A DNA stretch of 63,834 nucleotides, the filler included. It is 8 parts of 8 records of this genome, joined end to end, with 100 filler letters (N's around TTAATTAATTAA, not from the genome) between each part and the next. Parts side by side here need not be neighbours in the genome. Positions count along the whole stretch, not along the records: positions 58,486 to 63,834 come from SRR31156797_41987; 7 more parts are not named here. The stretch is one strand, 5' to 3'. Below, piece after piece: positions 6,307 to 63,834 of the stretch. Numbering within the stretch: the stretch's first letter is position 1; every line of letters begins with the position of its first letter. The notes under the pieces were generated by a model. The model had not been told where the DNA came from. It worked only from the letters and a program-made list of their open reading frames with translations, and ran no database searches. Both the position numbers and the translations under genes were made by a program.

Positions 6307-6406
6307 NNNNNNNNNNNNNNNNNNNNNNNNNNNNNNNNNNNNNNNNNNNNTTAATTAATTAANNNNNNNNNNNNNNNNNNNNNNNNNNNNNNNNNNNNNN
6401 NNNNNN
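6307..6406. other. Artificial contig linker
   Basis: N run, TTAATTAATTAA (stops in six frames), N run. Confidence 0.99.
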
Positions 6407-19847: not shown

Positions 19848-19947
19848 NNNNNNNNNNNNNNNNNNNNNNNNNNNNNNNNNNNNNNNNNNNNTTAATTAAT
19901 TAANNNNNNNNNNNNNNNNNNNNNNNNNNNNNNNNNNNNNNNNNNNN
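19848..19947. other. Artificial contig linker
   Basis: N run, TTAATTAATTAA, N run. Confidence 0.99.
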
Positions 19948-30794: not shown

Positions 30795-30894
30795 NNNNNN
30801 NNNNNNNNNNNNNNNNNNNNNNNNNNNNNNNNNNNNNNTTAATTAATTAANNNNNNNNNNNNNNNNNNNNNNNNNNNNNNNNNNNNNNNNNNNN
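30795..30894. other. Artificial contig linker
   Basis: N run, TTAATTAATTAA, N run. Confidence 0.99.
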
Positions 30895-38192: not shown

Positions 38193-38292
38193 NNNNNNNN
38201 NNNNNNNNNNNNNNNNNNNNNNNNNNNNNNNNNNNNTTAATTAATTAANNNNNNNNNNNNNNNNNNNNNNNNNNNNNNNNNNNNNNNNNNNN
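38193..38292. other. Artificial contig linker
   Basis: N run, TTAATTAATTAA, N run. Confidence 0.99.
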
Positions 38293-43622: not shown

Positions 43623-43722
43623 NNNNNNNNNNNNNNNNNNNNNNNNNNNNNNNNNNNNNNNNNNNNTTAATTAATTAANNNNNNNNNNNNNNNNNNNNNN
43701 NNNNNNNNNNNNNNNNNNNNNN
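43623..43722. other. Artificial contig linker
   Basis: N run, TTAATTAATTAA, N run. Confidence 0.99.
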
Positions 43723-49731: not shown

Positions 49732-49831
49732 NNNNNNNNNNNNNNNNNNNNNNNNNNNNNNNNNNNNNNNNNNNNTTAATTAATTAANNNNNNNNNNNNN
49801 NNNNNNNNNNNNNNNNNNNNNNNNNNNNNNN
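49732..49831. other. Artificial contig linker
   Basis: N run, TTAATTAATTAA, N run. Confidence 0.99.
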
Positions 49832-58385: not shown

Positions 58386-58485
58386 NNNNNNNNNNNNNNN
58401 NNNNNNNNNNNNNNNNNNNNNNNNNNNNNTTAATTAATTAANNNNNNNNNNNNNNNNNNNNNNNNNNNNNNNNNNNNNNNNNNNN
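58386..58485. other. Artificial contig linker
   Basis: N run, TTAATTAATTAA, N run. Confidence 0.99.
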
Positions 58486-59889
58486 AATGGATTTAAAGAT
58501 AAAGAGATGATTCATTTATGTTTTATTGCAAAAAAAATGGGTCATAATATCACTGTTATTATTGAAGGCTTAAATGAACTAGAGATTATCCTTGATGTAG
58601 AAAAAGAAACATCTTTACCTACTCCTAATATTGGAATTAGGGTTAGACTATTTAATTCAGGAAGTGGAGCTTGGGCAAAATCTGGTGGAATTGATGCAAA
58701 ATTTGGTTTAAGTTCTACAGAGATACTTGAAGCATTTGAGATGTTAGAAGAGAATAACTTAACAGATATCCTTACAATGATACATTTCCATATTGGTTCA
58801 GCAATGGATACAATTAAGCCTCTAAAAAATGCCTTAAAAGAATCTGGGCATATATATGCAGAGCTTAAAAATCTTGGTGCAAATAACCTAAGTGCAATCA
58901 ATATTGGTGGTGGATTAGCGGTTGAGTATTCTCAATTTCAAAGAACAGCACAATACCATCTTCAAGAGTTTGCAAACGATGTTGTATTTACATTAAAAAA
59001 TATTGCTAAACAAAAAGGTGTTGAAGAACCAAATATCTTCACTGAATCTGGAAGATTTATTAGTGCTACTTCAACTGTTTTAATTACACCTGTTTTAGAA
59101 CTATTTACAGCTGAGTATGATGCTGAACATTTAAGACTAAAAGAGAAAAATCCACCTTTAATTGAAGAGTTAAAAGAATTATATAATGATATGAATTCTA
59201 AAACTGCTTTAGAATATATGCATGATAGTATTGACCATTTAGAATCTCTTCTTAAACTGTTTGATTTAGGTTACATTGATTTAGAAGACAGAAGTAATGC
59301 AGAGATTCTCACAAACCTTATTATCAAAAAAGCAATTTGGTTTTTAGAAGTTGATGATTATTCAGAGTTAAAGAGAATCGATAATAAAATACAAGAAAAA
59401 TATTTAGTAAACTTCTCTATTTTCCAATCATTACCAGATTTTTGGGGAATCAAACAAGAATTTCCTATCATGCCAATAACACATTTAGATAAAAAACCAA
59501 CAAGAAGTGCCTCACTTTGGGATATCACTTGTGATAGTGATGGAGAGATTGGATTTAATCCAGAAAAACCACTTTTTCTTCATGATGTAGACTTAAAACT
59601 TGAAGAGTATTATCTTGGTTTTTTCCATGTTGGTGCTTATCAAGATATTTTAGGTATGAGACATAACTTATTTTCTCATCCAACAGAAATAAATGCGGTT
59701 TTTGAAAATGGAGAATTAAAATTAGAAAAGATACTTGAATCTCAAAAAATTATAGATATATTAGAAGATATTGATTATGATACGAAAGAGATAAAAGAGA
59801 TATTAAAAGATAATTTAGATGACAAAACATATAAAATACTAAAAAAATATTTACACGATAATAGTTATCTAAAGACAACATGGAGTTAA
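58486..59889 (+). CDS. speA: Biosynthetic arginine decarboxylase (5' truncated)
   Basis: NGFKD, WAKSGG..AKFGL, HFHIGS, GGGLAVEY, ESGR, SLPDFWG, DITCDSDG, GAYQDILG. Confidence 0.96.
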   Translation, partial: NGFKDKEMIHLCFIAKKMGHNITVIIEGLNELEIILDVEKETSLPTPNIGIRVRLFNSGSGAWAKSGGIDAKFGLSSTEILEAFEMLEENNLTDILTMIHFHIGSAMDTIKPLKNALKESGHIYAELKNLGANNLSAINIGGGLAVEYSQFQRTAQYHLQEFANDVVFTLKNIAKQKGVEEPNIFTESGRFISATSTVLITPVLELFTAEYDAEHLRLKEKNPPLIEELKELYNDMNSKTALEYMHDSIDHLESLLKLFDLGYIDLEDRSNAEILTNLIIKKAIWFLEVDDYSELKRIDNKIQEKYLVNFSIFQSLPDFWGIKQEFPIMPITHLDKKPTRSASLWDITCDSDGEIGFNPEKPLFLHDVDLKLEEYYLGFFHVGAYQDILGMRHNLFSHPTEINAVFENGELKLEKILESQKIIDILEDIDYDTKEIKEILKDNLDDKTYKILKKYLHDNSYLKTTWS

Positions 59890-59891
59890 AT

Positions 59892-60674
59892 ATGAATGAT
59901 GAAAAAGACACAAATGAAAAGATTAAAGAAAAAATTTTAAATGAACAAAAACAATTAGGTCTTTGGAAACAAATAAAAGAAGATTTTACTGTACCAAAAC
60001 TAAACGACCCTGCTCTAGATTCAAGCTTTGAACTATTTTTTAATTATCCTGGAGTTTGGGCAATTATTAGTCATAGGATTGCAAATAGATTATATAACAA
60101 AGGCTGGATAAAATTATCAAGAGTTCTTGTTGGGATAGTTTCTTTATTTTCAAAAACAGATATACACCCAGCTGCAACTATAGGTAGAAGAGTTTTTATT
60201 GACCATGCTATTGGTGTTGTAATTGGAGCAACTGCAATTGTTGAAGATGATGTTTTAATCTATCAAGGGGTTACACTAGGAGGTGTTAACTTAGATAAAG
60301 GAAAAAGACACCCAACAATTAGAGCAAATTCAGTAATTGGAAGTGGTGCAAAGGTTTTAGGAAATATCACTGTAGGTAAAAATGGAAAAATTGGAGCAAA
60401 CTCCGTAGTTATTTGCGATGTACCTAAAAACTCAACAGCTGTTGGTGTACCAGCAAAAGTAATCAAAAGAGATGACAAAAATGGAAGGTTAAACCATAGT
60501 GATCTTCCAGATATAAACAAAGAGATGTTTGAATATTTACTAAAAAGAGTTGCCCTTCTTGAACATGCTGTAAAAGACCATGATGGAATAGATTTAGTAA
60601 ATGAAGATCAAGATTTAGAATGTATTTATAAAAAATTCATAAGTGCAATGAATTCAATTAACCACAAAAATTAA
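59892..60674 (+). CDS. cysE: Serine O-acetyltransferase
   Basis: DPA, YPG, DIHPAA.IG..FIDHA.GVVIG, QGVTLGG, KRHP. Confidence 0.96.
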   Translation: MNDEKDTNEKIKEKILNEQKQLGLWKQIKEDFTVPKLNDPALDSSFELFFNYPGVWAIISHRIANRLYNKGWIKLSRVLVGIVSLFSKTDIHPAATIGRRVFIDHAIGVVIGATAIVEDDVLIYQGVTLGGVNLDKGKRHPTIRANSVIGSGAKVLGNITVGKNGKIGANSVVICDVPKNSTAVGVPAKVIKRDDKNGRLNHSDLPDINKEMFEYLLKRVALLEHAVKDHDGIDLVNEDQDLECIYKKFISAMNSINHKN

Positions 60675-61411
60675 TGTTTTTAGAATTAATCATATTTGGA
60701 CTAAGTGCTGGATTTGTTTCTGGTTTCTTTGGTCTAGGGGGAGGAACAGTTCTTACTCCTATTTTAATCATTGCAGGCTTCGCAATGAAAGAAGCTATTG
60801 CTATTTCAATAATGCAAATGGTATTTAGTTCAATATATGGTTCAATTCTAAATGCAAGAAAAGCTCAAAGTATCTATAAAGATGGAATCATTTTAGGTAT
60901 AGGTGGTTCACTTGGTGGGTTTCTAAACAGTTATATCCATGAGCTTGTATCAAATCAATTCTTACAATATGTATTTATAATCATAGTAATATTTTCTATT
61001 GTTAAAATTTTTGTATCTCCAGTTGAACCAATAGGTGAAGTAAAACATCATAGTAAATTTATACTTTTATTAGTAGGTTTTTTTGTAGGACTTATTGCTA
61101 TGAGTATTGGAGTTGGTGGAGCTATTATGTTAACACCAATACTTGTAAGCTTTATGAAGTTTCCATTAAAACAAGCTACAAGTTTGAGTTTGTTTTTTGT
61201 TATATTCTCTTCTATTTCTGGATTTACATCTTTAACAATACACGGGCATATGCCTTTTCAAGAAGGTATAACTATTGGATTAGCATCTTTAATAGGTGTA
61301 TTTTTTGGAATAAAGGCTAAAAATGCAACGGGAGCTAAAAACTACAAAAAATCAATTTTAGTTATGTATTTTGTAATCTTAGCTATTATGTCTTATAAAA
61401 CTATTTTATAA
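60674..61411 (+). CDS. TauE/SafE (DUF81) sulfite-exporter-family membrane protein
   Basis: Duplicated G.GGG...P motifs, about 8 TM segments. Confidence 0.9.
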   Translation: MFLELIIFGLSAGFVSGFFGLGGGTVLTPILIIAGFAMKEAIAISIMQMVFSSIYGSILNARKAQSIYKDGIILGIGGSLGGFLNSYIHELVSNQFLQYVFIIIVIFSIVKIFVSPVEPIGEVKHHSKFILLLVGFFVGLIAMSIGVGGAIMLTPILVSFMKFPLKQATSLSLFFVIFSSISGFTSLTIHGHMPFQEGITIGLASLIGVFFGIKAKNATGAKNYKKSILVMYFVILAIMSYKTIL

Positions 61412-63834
61412 TCTCTTCTAAAAGATAAGATAAAACTCCAGAATTTTTATAATAATTTACCTCATCAACTGTTTCAAGTTTTGATTTTAGTTCAACTTCA
61501 ATATCTATATTTGATTTATGTATTGTTACAAATATTTTCTGGTCTTGTATTATTTTATCAGTTTTAATTGTAACTTTTTCATCACCTTTTAACTTCAATG
61601 ATTCAAGTGATGTATCTATAAACTCTAAAGGTAAAATTCCCAATTCAATTAAATTCAGTCTGTATGCAGGTGCAAAGGATTCTGCTATTATTACATCAAC
61701 ACCTAACATTTTAGTTCCTTTTGCTGTCCAATCTCTAAGATGCCCTATTCCATAATTTTTCCCTGCAAATATTATTAGAGGATTGTTGTTATCTTTTTCT
61801 TTTCTTGCTTTTTTATATATTGTTACAATCTCATTTGTTTCGTAATCTTTTGTAAACCCACCCTCTTTTGAAACCATTTTATTTTTTAGATTTGGATTAT
61901 CAAAAGTTCCTCTAACCATAACTTCTGAATTACCTCTTCTACTATTGAAAGTGTTATATTCAAAAGACTTTACACCATTTCTTTCTAAATATTTAGCAGC
62001 TGATGAATACAAAGAGATTTGTCCAAAAGGAGATATCTGTTCAATAGTTACATCATCTCCAAATATAGCTAAGATAGAACCTTTTTGTATATCAATATTT
62101 TCTAAATCTTTTTTCTCAAAAATATTACTTGCTTGTATATATGTTGAATTTTCTTTCCATTTATAAGTTTTCGAATCTTCTACTTCTAAGTTTTGCCAAA
62201 ACTCATTTCCTGTAAAAATATCTTTGTAAATTTTTCTATATAATGTATAATCTAATTCCCCAAGGTACTTTAATACTTCATGATTACTAGGCCAAAGATT
62301 TTTAACAAAAATATCTTTATCATCTAGTACTCCAATTACATCTTCATATAAATCAAACTTCATATTTCCTATTAATGAATAAATAACAACCAAGGATGGT
62401 GACATCTGAAAGTTTGTTTTTATAAGAGGATTTATTTTACTCTTTATTGTACTATCCCCTGAACTAATAGAGCAAACATTTAATCCAAACTGTTTTATTT
62501 CACTTTCTAAAATCTCATCTATATTGTTTGAGCTTGAGATTGTATTTTCAACATTAACAATATAAAAACCTAAATGCTCTAAATACTTTAATAAATCAAG
62601 TTTCTCTAAATACTCTTTTACAACTAAAGAACTAGTAGAAAAGTATGTTTTTATATTTTTATTGATTTTAAGTCCAAAGTCTACAGCTTTTTTTGCAACT
62701 AATGCTGCTTCTATTAATAAGTATGGATTCGAAGTTGAGTCTTTTGATGTTATTGCAGCAAATACAATATCTAAATCTTTTAGATTTTTGGATTGTTTTG
62801 CAATTGGTAACTGTTTTAAACTTTTAATCTCTATAGTTTCTGGATTTTTTTTCAAGTCTAAAATTGTAGGCTTAACATTTGATAAATCAAAATGAACTAC
62901 CTCATCATAATCTAATGTTTGGTTTTCAAAAAACAATTCTTGTTTTACTAAATACTCTTTTACTATTTTTCCATAATCATCATTGTCTCTAGTTTTATTA
63001 AAATAGTTTATTGTCTTCTCATCAATAATAAAAAAAGAGCATCTTGCATTGTACATTGGTGCAAGATTTGAGATAGTTGACCTATCTTCCAAAGTTATAT
63101 ATTTTAGTCCTTCTCCATAAAACTCTACAAGTTTTCCTGAGATATTACTGTTTTTCAAAATCTCAACTAAAGTTAAAACTATATCTGAAGAGTTAACTAC
63201 ATCATTTAGCTTCCCATGTATATTTATCCCTACAACTTTTGGTAAATCAAAGTATAAAGGTAAACCTAACATTAAAGATTCAGCTTCTATTCCTTCTGCA
63301 CCCCAACCTAAAACACCAAGAGAGTTAATCATAGTTGTGTAGGAATCTGTTCCTATTATAGTTTCAGGATAAAGAAAAAACTTCTCATCCTTTTTTTCAA
63401 CATGTAAAATTGTAGATAAAAACTCTAAATTAACTTGATGACAGATTCCAGAACCAGGAGGAACGACTCTAAAGTTTTTAAACTGTTTTTGAGCCCACTT
63501 AATAAACTCATATCTCTCTTTGTTTAATTCATATTCATTATTTATATCAAGGTCTTTGTTGTTATTATCAGTGCCTAGTTTTATAGATTGGTCTATAACC
63601 ATATCAACTAAGATTTGTGGATTTATTTTACTTGGGTCTTCTTCTCTTCTTTCAAGTTCGTCTCTCATAGATGCTAAATCTACAAGTGCAGGAATACCTG
63701 AAAAATCATGCATTATTATTCTAGATGGATAAAAACCTACTTTTGTTGATAATCTTTTTTGAAAAGTATCAATAATAGATCTCATCTGCTTTTCATCTTT
63801 TGCTTTTCTTAAATTTGCTTCTAAAAGTATTTTT
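61401..63834 (-). CDS. AcnA/IRP-family aconitase homolog lacking Fe-S and catalytic residues (5' end outside the window)
   Basis: AcnA scaffold motifs retained (ILLEANLR, DLASMRD, VVPPGSGICHQVNLE, GVLGWG, SRRGN.EVM.RGTF.N, RDW.AKG). The frame is open to the window edge. Confidence 0.9.
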   Translation of the reverse strand, partial: KILLEANLRKAKDEKQMRSIIDTFQKRLSTKVGFYPSRIIMHDFSGIPALVDLASMRDELERREEDPSKINPQILVDMVIDQSIKLGTDNNNKDLDINNEYELNKERYEFIKWAQKQFKNFRVVPPGSGICHQVNLEFLSTILHVEKKDEKFFLYPETIIGTDSYTTMINSLGVLGWGAEGIEAESLMLGLPLYFDLPKVVGINIHGKLNDVVNSSDIVLTLVEILKNSNISGKLVEFYGEGLKYITLEDRSTISNLAPMYNARCSFFIIDEKTINYFNKTRDNDDYGKIVKEYLVKQELFFENQTLDYDEVVHFDLSNVKPTILDLKKNPETIEIKSLKQLPIAKQSKNLKDLDIVFAAITSKDSTSNPYLLIEAALVAKKAVDFGLKINKNIKTYFSTSSLVVKEYLEKLDLLKYLEHLGFYIVNVENTISSSNNIDEILESEIKQFGLNVCSISSGDSTIKSKINPLIKTNFQMSPSLVVIYSLIGNMKFDLYEDVIGVLDDKDIFVKNLWPSNHEVLKYLGELDYTLYRKIYKDIFTGNEFWQNLEVEDSKTYKWKENSTYIQASNIFEKKDLENIDIQKGSILAIFGDDVTIEQISPFGQISLYSSAAKYLERNGVKSFEYNTFNSRRGNSEVMVRGTFDNPNLKNKMVSKEGGFTKDYETNEIVTIYKKARKEKDNNNPLIIFAGKNYGIGHLRDWTAKGTKMLGVDVIIAESFAPAYRLNLIELGILPLEFIDTSLESLKLKGDEKVTIKTDKIIQDQKIFVTIHKSNIDIEVELKSKLETVDEVNYYKNSGVLSYLLEEIIK

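Follow-up and report, generated by a model that had tools for sequence, protein, structure and literature searches.

An AcnA-like protein without cluster ligands or catalytic residues, under purifying selection at a conserved locus of Arcobacteraceae

Results and Discussion

An AcnA-like frame with a degenerate active site

The subject of this study is a gene of the AcnA/iron regulatory protein (IRP) family that lies at the end of a 63,834-nucleotide stretch of DNA, here called the window, which consists of eight contig pieces separated by seven 100-nt linkers (Table 1). A preliminary description, made from the letters alone, had proposed that this gene is an uninterrupted AcnA-like frame of more than 800 codons in an AT-rich, Arcobacter-like contig, and our analysis bears out both points: the frame extends over 810 codons with no internal stop and encodes the Pfam domains Aconitase and Aconitase_C, and the piece that carries it (58486-63834) has a G+C content of 28.4% (vs 50.5% for the remaining pieces) and encodes neighbouring SpeA and CysE proteins that are 93-94% identical to their counterparts in the Arcobacteraceae genomes G104 and G106. 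The AT-rich piece probably derives from a different organism than the other pieces of the bin. A 9,634-nt contig from an independent public sequencing run (X2) matches the piece along its entire length, without gaps and with 70 differences, and the frame is therefore not an assembly artefact. Approximately 40 N-terminal residues of the protein lie beyond the window (the NCBIfam AcnA models align from model position 44). The window protein has the four-domain architecture of the AcnA/IRP family, with both Pfam domains in one chain and a predicted model that aligns to IRP1 over residues 1-810. It passes the NCBIfam AcnA subfamily model PRK09277 (849.8 bits; cut-off 686), fails the AcnA equivalog TIGR01341 (815.8 bits vs a cut-off of 945, with ~25 N-terminal model positions missing) and fails the AcnD equivalog (536.7 vs 1419.85 bits). 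Its best solved relatives are IRP1 (2b3x, 7.9e-163; 3sn2) and IRP2 (6vcd). An Rfam search of the window gave no matches.

Table 1. Positions of the features of the window that are referred to in the text.
Feature	Position	Strand	Remarks
Putative pseudo-aconitase coding sequence (AcnA/IRP family)	61401..63833	-	810 codons + stop codon 61401-61403; 5' end open at window edge
Pfam Aconitase (AcnA domains 1-3)	62367..63743	-	residues 31-489, 7.9e-97
Pfam Aconitase_C (swivel domain 4)	61620..61997	-	residues 613-738, 4.4e-25
K364 codon	62742..62744	-	site of first cluster cysteine, IRP1 Cys437
Residues 426-437 VNVENTISSSNN, ex-GCxxC loop	62523..62558	-	Cys2 replaced by N430, Cys3 by S433, 2-residue deletion; pLDDT <50 at 429-434
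Residues 458-466 SGDSTIKSK, ex-SGNRNFEGR	62436..62462	-	both substrate/IRE-contact Arg replaced: S461, K466
Residues 697-702 GHLRDW, ex-GSSRDW	61728..61745	-	catalytic Ser replaced by His; Arg-Asp-Trp retained
TauE/SafE-family membrane protein	60674..61411	+	convergent neighbour, Pfam-checked; overlaps acn stop by 11 nt; part of conserved synteny
Serine acetyltransferase, presumably cysE	59880..60674	+	94% identical to G106 ortholog
Arginine decarboxylase, presumably speA	58507..59889	+	5' cut by contig start; 93% identical to G104/G106 orthologs
Artificial linkers	6307-6406, 19848-19947, 30795-30894, 38193-38292, 43623-43722, 49732-49831, 58386-58485		N44 + TTAATTAATTAA + N44

To compare residues, the window protein was aligned to human IRP1 (2b3x) with HMMER. 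The motif of the first cluster cysteine, AAITSCTNTSNP, reads AAITSKDSTSNP in the window protein, and GYGCMTCIGNSG reads VNV--ENTISSSNN, so that none of the three cluster ligands is retained (IRP1 C437, C503 and C506 correspond to K364, N430 and S433) and none of the three cysteines that the protein has in total stands at a ligand position. Further changes affect DHS (now DQS), DSHT (DSYT), QDFTG (HDFSG), TTDHISP (TIEQISP) and ERIHRSNL (APAYRLNL), in addition to the SGDSTIKSK and GHLRDW segments of Table 1, while GICHQVNLE, GVLGWG and SRRGN are unchanged. All of these substitutions and all of the retained motifs, including the placement of the first cysteine-to-lysine exchange at codon 62742-62744 and the loss of the remaining two cysteines, had been listed in the preliminary description and were recovered in the IRP1 alignment. 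Scored over 25 canonical active-site columns, which are complete in all eight canonical AcnA sequences aligned, the window protein retains nine. The residues by which a functional AcnA is recognized, namely the cluster cysteines, the catalytic serine, the His/Asp pairs and the substrate-binding arginines, are not found as a set in the window protein.

A clade of degenerate AcnA-like proteins

A protein search recovered 46 relatives of the window protein at 47-61% identity, followed by a drop to canonical AcnA at 43%; where names are given, these relatives belong to Halarcobacter, Arcobacter and Poseidonibacter, and the public records label proteins of this clade ‘aconitate hydratase AcnA’ or ‘aconitase family protein’. 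The clade gene was present in 54 of the 184 Arcobacteraceae genomes, as a full-length copy in 52, a frameshifted copy in one (G091) and a short form in one (G001). A maximum-likelihood tree with AcnD as its root placed all 91 clade sequences in one monophyletic group, with a support of 1.0, as the sister of canonical AcnA; the tree of representative sequences was re-rooted on canonical AcnA, its midpoint root being meaningless. The gene order ubiX-coaD-tmk-hisS-speA-cysE-tauE> <acn was found at 20 of 20 loci examined, sometimes with inserts, and uvrA was found beyond acn, within the 20 kb fetched, at 19 of these 20.

The preliminary description had suggested testing whether the degenerate sites are shared across the Arcobacteraceae. 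Degeneracy is indeed common to the orthologs, but its extent is very uneven: clade members retain between 4 and 21 of the 25 active-site columns and no member retains all 25. Full-length orthologs score 841, 657, 513 and 450 against the AcnA equivalog. The three cluster cysteines are retained individually in 59 (Cys1), 41 (Cys2) and 13 (Cys3) of the 91 members, which implies a minimum of 14, 8 and 4 changes along the tree, respectively, and all three together in 12. The catalytic serine is retained in only 4 of 91 members and the histidine of TTDHISP in 5 of 91, and loss of the serine seems to date back to the clade root; loss of the cluster ligands followed, independently in many lineages. 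Among the 209 columns that are invariant in AcnA and AcnD, 88 are lost or changed in the clade. Conversely, 119 columns are conserved at ≥90% in the clade, of which 80 are common with canonical AcnA.

We considered whether the clade could still be enzymatic, either as a cluster-free hydratase or isomerase or by holding a cluster through other ligands. The fold is intact, selection on it is as strong as that on AcnD and AcnA (see below), and some members have three cysteines and up to 21 of 25 sites, all of which would fit such an activity. However, no alternative catalytic constellation is conserved, and conservation is lowest in the 25 columns of the former active site (0.50 vs a protein average of 0.61). 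The near absence of the serine base and of the TTDHISP histidine from the clade, the position of the window protein's cysteines away from the ligand sites, the deletion of the Cys2/Cys3 loop in many members and the loss of domain 3 in some also speak against catalysis, which we regard as very improbable.

We also noted another set of AcnA-like proteins, 860-890 aa long (P0214, P0221, P0224, P0235, P0239, P0243, P0244 and P0258), which retain 2-7 of the 25 sites. Where named, its members come from metagenome-assembled genomes of Gamma- and Alphaproteobacteria and are labelled ‘aconitate hydratase AcnA’ or ‘aconitase family protein’; in the tree the set stands apart from the Arcobacteraceae clade, with a weak support of 0.45. 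Dead AcnA proteins may thus have arisen more than once. A search of the ESM Atlas returned generic aconitase clusters only.

Other aconitases in the same genomes

It had also been proposed that another aconitase, such as AcnB, performs the tricarboxylic acid (TCA) cycle step, and the distribution of AcnB supports this: its N-terminal domain was detected in 170 of the 184 genomes of the family, and 50 of the 54 carriers of the clade gene have it. An AcnA-like paralog that is 33-35% identical to the window protein and present in most genomes is AcnD (1531 bits vs a cut-off of 1420), and a true AcnA occurs in addition in two genomes (1322 vs 945 bits). AcnD has been described in A. butzleri beside prpF (PMC2147049), and the excerpts available of two papers on Arcobacter aconitases describe AcnB, AcnD and AcnA types only (PMC2147049, PMC13147460). 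In the literature on dead, pseudo- or non-catalytic aconitases, as represented by titles and the opening lines of abstracts, we found no description of proteins of this kind. Although AcnD resembles the window protein in being AcnA-like, ~865 aa long and encoded in the same genomes, it differs in retaining all three cysteines, the catalytic serine and arginine, 21 of the 25 sites and a signature of its own. As a separate observation, the AcnD proteins of three genomes (G089, G106 and G090; loci L079-L081) are 89-94% identical although the neighbours of acn are more diverged between them and the acn copies are only ~50% identical; these identities hint at an exchange of the acnD locus between genera.

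Predicted structure of the window protein

The structure of the window protein, without its ~40 N-terminal residues, was predicted with AlphaFold2 from a 52-row alignment. The model has a predicted local distance difference test (pLDDT) score of 85.8 and a predicted template modelling (pTM) score of 0.82; pLDDT falls below 50 only at residues 83-95, 129-134, 365-367 and 429-434, which lie on or beside the former active-site motifs. Compared with Foldseek, the model superposes on open IRP1 bound to the iron-responsive element (IRE; 3snp, 3sn2) with a TMq of 0.86 and a root-mean-square deviation (rmsd) of 3.6-3.8 Å, and on closed holo-IRP1 (2b3x) with a TMq of 0.66 and an rmsd of 9.7 Å. VIA-align gave the same picture, with a Z score of 38.0 and an rmsd of 3.2 Å over 765 residues for 3snp, an rmsd of 9.4 Å for 2b3x, and a Z score of 38.9 with an rmsd of 2.4 Å over 593 residues for IRP2 (6vcd_A). 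In contrast, the control L082, a true AcnA of this bacterial family modelled at equal alignment depth, came out closed (TMq 0.92 and rmsd 2.5 Å on 2b3x; TMq 0.59 and rmsd 11.7 Å on open 3snp). The window protein is thus predicted to adopt the open shape of IRE-bound IRP1 and of IRP2, and the proposal in the preliminary description of a permanently apo state gains support at the level of these models.

Purifying selection on the frame

To determine whether the loss of chemistry took place in a frame that is under selection, we calculated ratios of non-synonymous to synonymous substitution rates (dN/dS) by the Nei-Gojobori method (NG86). The ratio was 0.06-0.22 in 21 of 24 clade pairs; of the other three, two deep ones gave 0.30-0.41 and a saturated one 0.19. 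It was low also for the most degenerate members (0.10 for a protein with 4 of 25 sites, 0.06-0.08 for those with 7 of 25). Control values were 0.09-0.20 for AcnD and 0.11 for AcnA, and flanking housekeeping genes of the same genome pairs mostly gave 0.02-0.08. In the window copy, nonsense changes make up 7.7% of the possible non-synonymous single-base changes; if the gene were neutral, 37-48 stops would therefore be expected alongside the 445-572 non-synonymous differences that separate it from three orthologs, and none was seen. Compared with the X2 strain (98.7% identical), 24 listed differences fall into 23 codons, 20 of them synonymous and three with a replacement, vs a chance expectation of 20% synonymous (p = 9e-12), a count that rests on 40 listed of 434 differences and covers 61401-62625, not the 5' half of the gene. 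A relative in X4 has an in-frame 6-nt insertion in the gene. The view that chemistry was lost from a frame under selection is supported by both comparisons. Side by side with this, the listed differences to X2 are ~8x denser in acn (24 in 1.2 kb) than in speA-cysE-tauE (7 in 2.9 kb) and mostly synonymous in both, a pattern that resembles a recombination mosaic more than it does a relaxation of constraint.

These data bear directly on whether the gene could be a pseudogene on its way to loss, or an assembly artefact. Its absence from most of the family, the frameshift in G091, its faster evolution than that of its neighbours and its place on the outlier contig of a mixed bin might suggest this. 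However, the 810-codon frame is intact in DNA of 27% G+C, the expected nonsense changes are missing, the listed differences to the X2 strain are mostly synonymous, with no indels, dN/dS is low across the clade, and the root-to-tip distance of the window protein (2.01) is not longer than those of its relatives (1.9-2.6). This explanation is already contradicted by the data and retains a negligible probability. The preliminary description had named, as the signs of a decaying copy, close orthologs that keep the cysteines together with a dN/dS near 1; the nearest orthologs of the window protein (61% identity) do retain all three cysteines, but dN/dS is nowhere near 1. Internal stops were flagged in four further genomes (G020, G031, G030 and G002) and were rejected by tblastn: the one stop that it showed, in G020, coincides with the natural C-terminus, and the matches in the other three contain no stop. 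The copy in G091 is the only clearly broken one among the 54 carrier genomes.

A probable catalytically dead AcnA descendant

The clade combines homology to aconitase and loss of essential residues with purifying selection and orthologs at one locus in 54 of 184 genomes, the features that characterize a pseudoenzyme. We consider it likely that the window protein is a catalytically dead descendant of AcnA maintained by selection while AcnB performs the TCA step, and the clade would be a pseudoenzyme branch of the AcnA/IRP family, which by analogy might be likened to IRP2. The window protein would then be a pseudo-aconitase derived from AcnA that does not bind a [4Fe-4S] cluster and is without the catalytic base and most of the substrate-binding residues. 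Purifying selection would keep it as a full-length, translated protein. The clade to which it belongs is found across the Arcobacteraceae at one fixed housekeeping locus, and in it the constraint has shifted from the active site onto the fold. AcnB would carry out the TCA reaction, and AcnD that of the methylcitrate pathway. With no cluster to clamp domains 3 and 4 together, the protein would be permanently open and apo-like, and we infer that it would act by binding and not by catalysis.

Several observations weigh against this proposal. The clade gene is absent from ~130 of 184 family genomes, and among five regions examined in genomes without it, two of which retain speA-cysE-tauE...uvrA, no acn remnant was detected at E ≤ 1e-3; because the gene is missing from so many genomes, is frameshifted in G091 (L076, G091:C1:643000-648000, between query residues 460 and 466) and has left no remnant at the two syntenic loci, it is dispensable. 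The amino acid sequence of acn evolves ~4-6x faster than those of its neighbours (for example, acn is 52-54% identical where SpeA is 90-92% and UvrA 92% identical). The clade may be functionally mixed, as 12 of its 91 members keep three cysteines, and L012, which is among the least degenerate members, passes the AcnA equivalog (1022 vs 945 bits). A loss of activity at the root of the clade would follow from the missing serine. The open shape is an AlphaFold prediction for a protein whose N-terminus is missing, and both states of IRP1 are in the training data. The gene was found in none of the sequencing runs recorded as RNA. A run that we only guessed to be RNA (X6) has contigs over parts of the gene, from which we drew nothing on expression or habitat.

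RNA-contact residues and possible ligands

One proposal for a binding role is the IRP-like regulator of the preliminary description taken strictly, a constitutively apo protein in which domains 3 and 4 would form a clamp around IRE-like stem-loops through the contacts used by IRP1. These contacts have been described as R269, S371, K379, T438, N439, R536, R541, S681, P682, R713, R780, D781 and W782 (PMC3048577, PMC4184891). Six of the 13 are identical in the window protein, all of them in the pocket of domain 4 that receives the bulge (S681, P682, R713, R780, D781 and W782), and this agrees with the proposal, as does the predicted shape, which matches IRE-bound IRP1 and IRP2 where the control AcnA is closed. 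The proposal also has a precedent in that bacterial apo-AcnA, CitB and AcnB have been reported to bind mRNAs; the abstracts of these papers mention no other non-catalytic activity of bacterial aconitases (PMC7527780, PMC11317140, PMC4150767, PMC3912134).

Four lines of evidence argue against RNA binding of this kind. First, the loop and segment contacts are replaced in the window protein (R269K, S371L, K379T, T438D, N439S, R536S and R541K), and the IRP-type set of IRE-contact residues is therefore not present. Second, three of the pocket residues are retained in only part of the clade (R713 in 36, R780 in 32 and D781 in 52 of 91 members). Third, the window protein is acidic like the enzymes, with an isoelectric point (pI) of 5.40 and a net charge of -16, and a basic shift of charge or pI as a sign of nucleic-acid binding was not seen in the clade either (median pI 5.39 vs 5.70 for AcnA and 5.30 for AcnD). 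Fourth, domain 3 has been deleted in at least four clade lineages: short forms of 564-647 aa (P0147, P0164, P0170 and P0204, and the copy in G001) have native N- and C-termini and lack it, and comprise at least three representatives of 50%-identity clusters (645, 619 and 625 aa), the G001 copy (647 aa; G001:C7:35044-36855, L006/L007), which stays in one frame, and the 564-aa form. The missing stretch runs from window residues ~312-333 to ~526-536, roughly domain 3 including the cysteine loops, and in the 564-aa form still more is absent (~197-507). IRP1 needs domain 3 to clamp the loop of the IRE. Because some members are without this domain, a clamp of the IRP1 type cannot be the function of the clade as a whole, and we regard a strict IRP-like mechanism as unlikely. 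RNA binding of another kind would have a precedent in the bacterial apo-aconitases, and an RNA ligand with a post-transcriptional role of the apo-aconitase type is a tentative suggestion on our part; if the ligand is RNA, the residues indicate that it is not bound via the exact IRE contact set of IRP1.

Alternatively, the dead fold could act through domains 1-2 and 4 as a scaffold or as a regulator that binds a protein or a metabolite; TCA metabolism, propionate metabolism and iron handling are examples of where it might do so. Consistent with this, conservation extends over the whole fold and peaks in the core of domains 1-2 and in domain 4 (0.68-0.70 for residues 121-180 and 691-750), domain 3 is dispensable in the short forms, there is no basic shift in charge, and only 17 conserved positions are specific to the clade, with no new conserved motif found in the clade alignment. 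However, acn has no conserved operon partner, standing alone between convergent tauE and, mostly, uvrA, and the substrate-binding arginines are degenerate too, which argues against a sensor of tricarboxylates. We consider such a role a serious candidate that falls somewhat short of an even chance. Between RNA on the one hand and a protein or metabolite partner on the other, the two kinds of ligand are about equally likely.

Comparison with the known members of the family puts the pseudo-aconitase reading in context. Vertebrate IRP2 (IREB2) has the same four-domain fold; it lacks aconitase activity and has been retained in the family for binding. The window protein differs in being bacterial and in lacking the three cysteines and the loop contacts of IRP1. 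IRP2 itself still has the cluster cysteines and the residues that contact the IRE, and it is controlled through FBXL5-dependent degradation. Apo-IRP1 in complex with the IRE (3SNP, 3SN2) gives the best global superposition of the predicted model and shares the six residues of the domain-4 pocket, but IRP1 toggles reversibly between holo-enzyme and RNA binder, whereas the window protein cannot form the holo state. Bacterial AcnA (TIGR01341) is the closest family by sequence and the clade is its sister in the tree, and the apo form of AcnA moonlights; the true AcnA L082, however, scores 1322 bits and models closed, compared to 815.8 bits, 0/3 cysteines and 9/25 sites for the window protein. It is conceivable, though speculative, that marine Arcobacteraceae possess in this obligately cluster-free, open-locked AcnA descendant a dedicated regulator, a bacterial and iron-independent counterpart of IRP2. 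If this were true, the regulatory side of aconitase would have been split from catalysis, with the cluster ligands lost many times and domain 3 deleted in some members, and, given independent lineages of dead AcnA in Alpha- and Gammaproteobacteria, evolution would have taken this route repeatedly.

It is a long-standing question whether the RNA-binding moonlighting of bacterial aconitases is selected or a by-product of cluster loss, and it has been hard to test because catalysis and binding share one protein. A natural clade without catalysis and under purifying selection would offer a clean handle on it, since whatever the clade binds would represent a selected non-catalytic function of the fold. 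The graded series from 21/25 to 4/25 sites, in which both the cysteines and domain 3 are present in some members and absent from others, would further allow the requirements of the fold to be dissected. In practical terms, the ‘aconitate hydratase AcnA’ labels in public records will mislead metabolic reconstructions of marine Campylobacterota.

Neighbouring genes and upstream signals

The genes next to acn in the window are given in Table 1. Only the TauE neighbour was checked against Pfam, and the other two are those which we take to be speA and cysE. The TauE protein is 81% identical to its counterparts in G104 and G106, and a protein of one of these genomes is named Halarcobacter sp. Horizontal transfer of acn was entertained as an explanation for the contrast between neighbours that are 93% identical to those of G104 and G106 and an acn product that is 52-53% identical to theirs and 61% identical to that of G088. 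It was rejected in favour of rate differences because the window protein groups in the tree with G104, G106, G086 and G090, all of which have longer branches. Across the clade, a Shine-Dalgarno-like site, an indirect sign of expression, was found upstream of acn at 45 of 51 orthologous loci, and the start codon is TTG at 39, ATG at 9 and GTG at 3 of the 51. Within the 90 nt upstream of the acn start (L039-L078), an extended -10-like element, TGnTAnnnT, was seen at 18 of 51 loci, in 16 of them ~36-49 nt upstream of the start.

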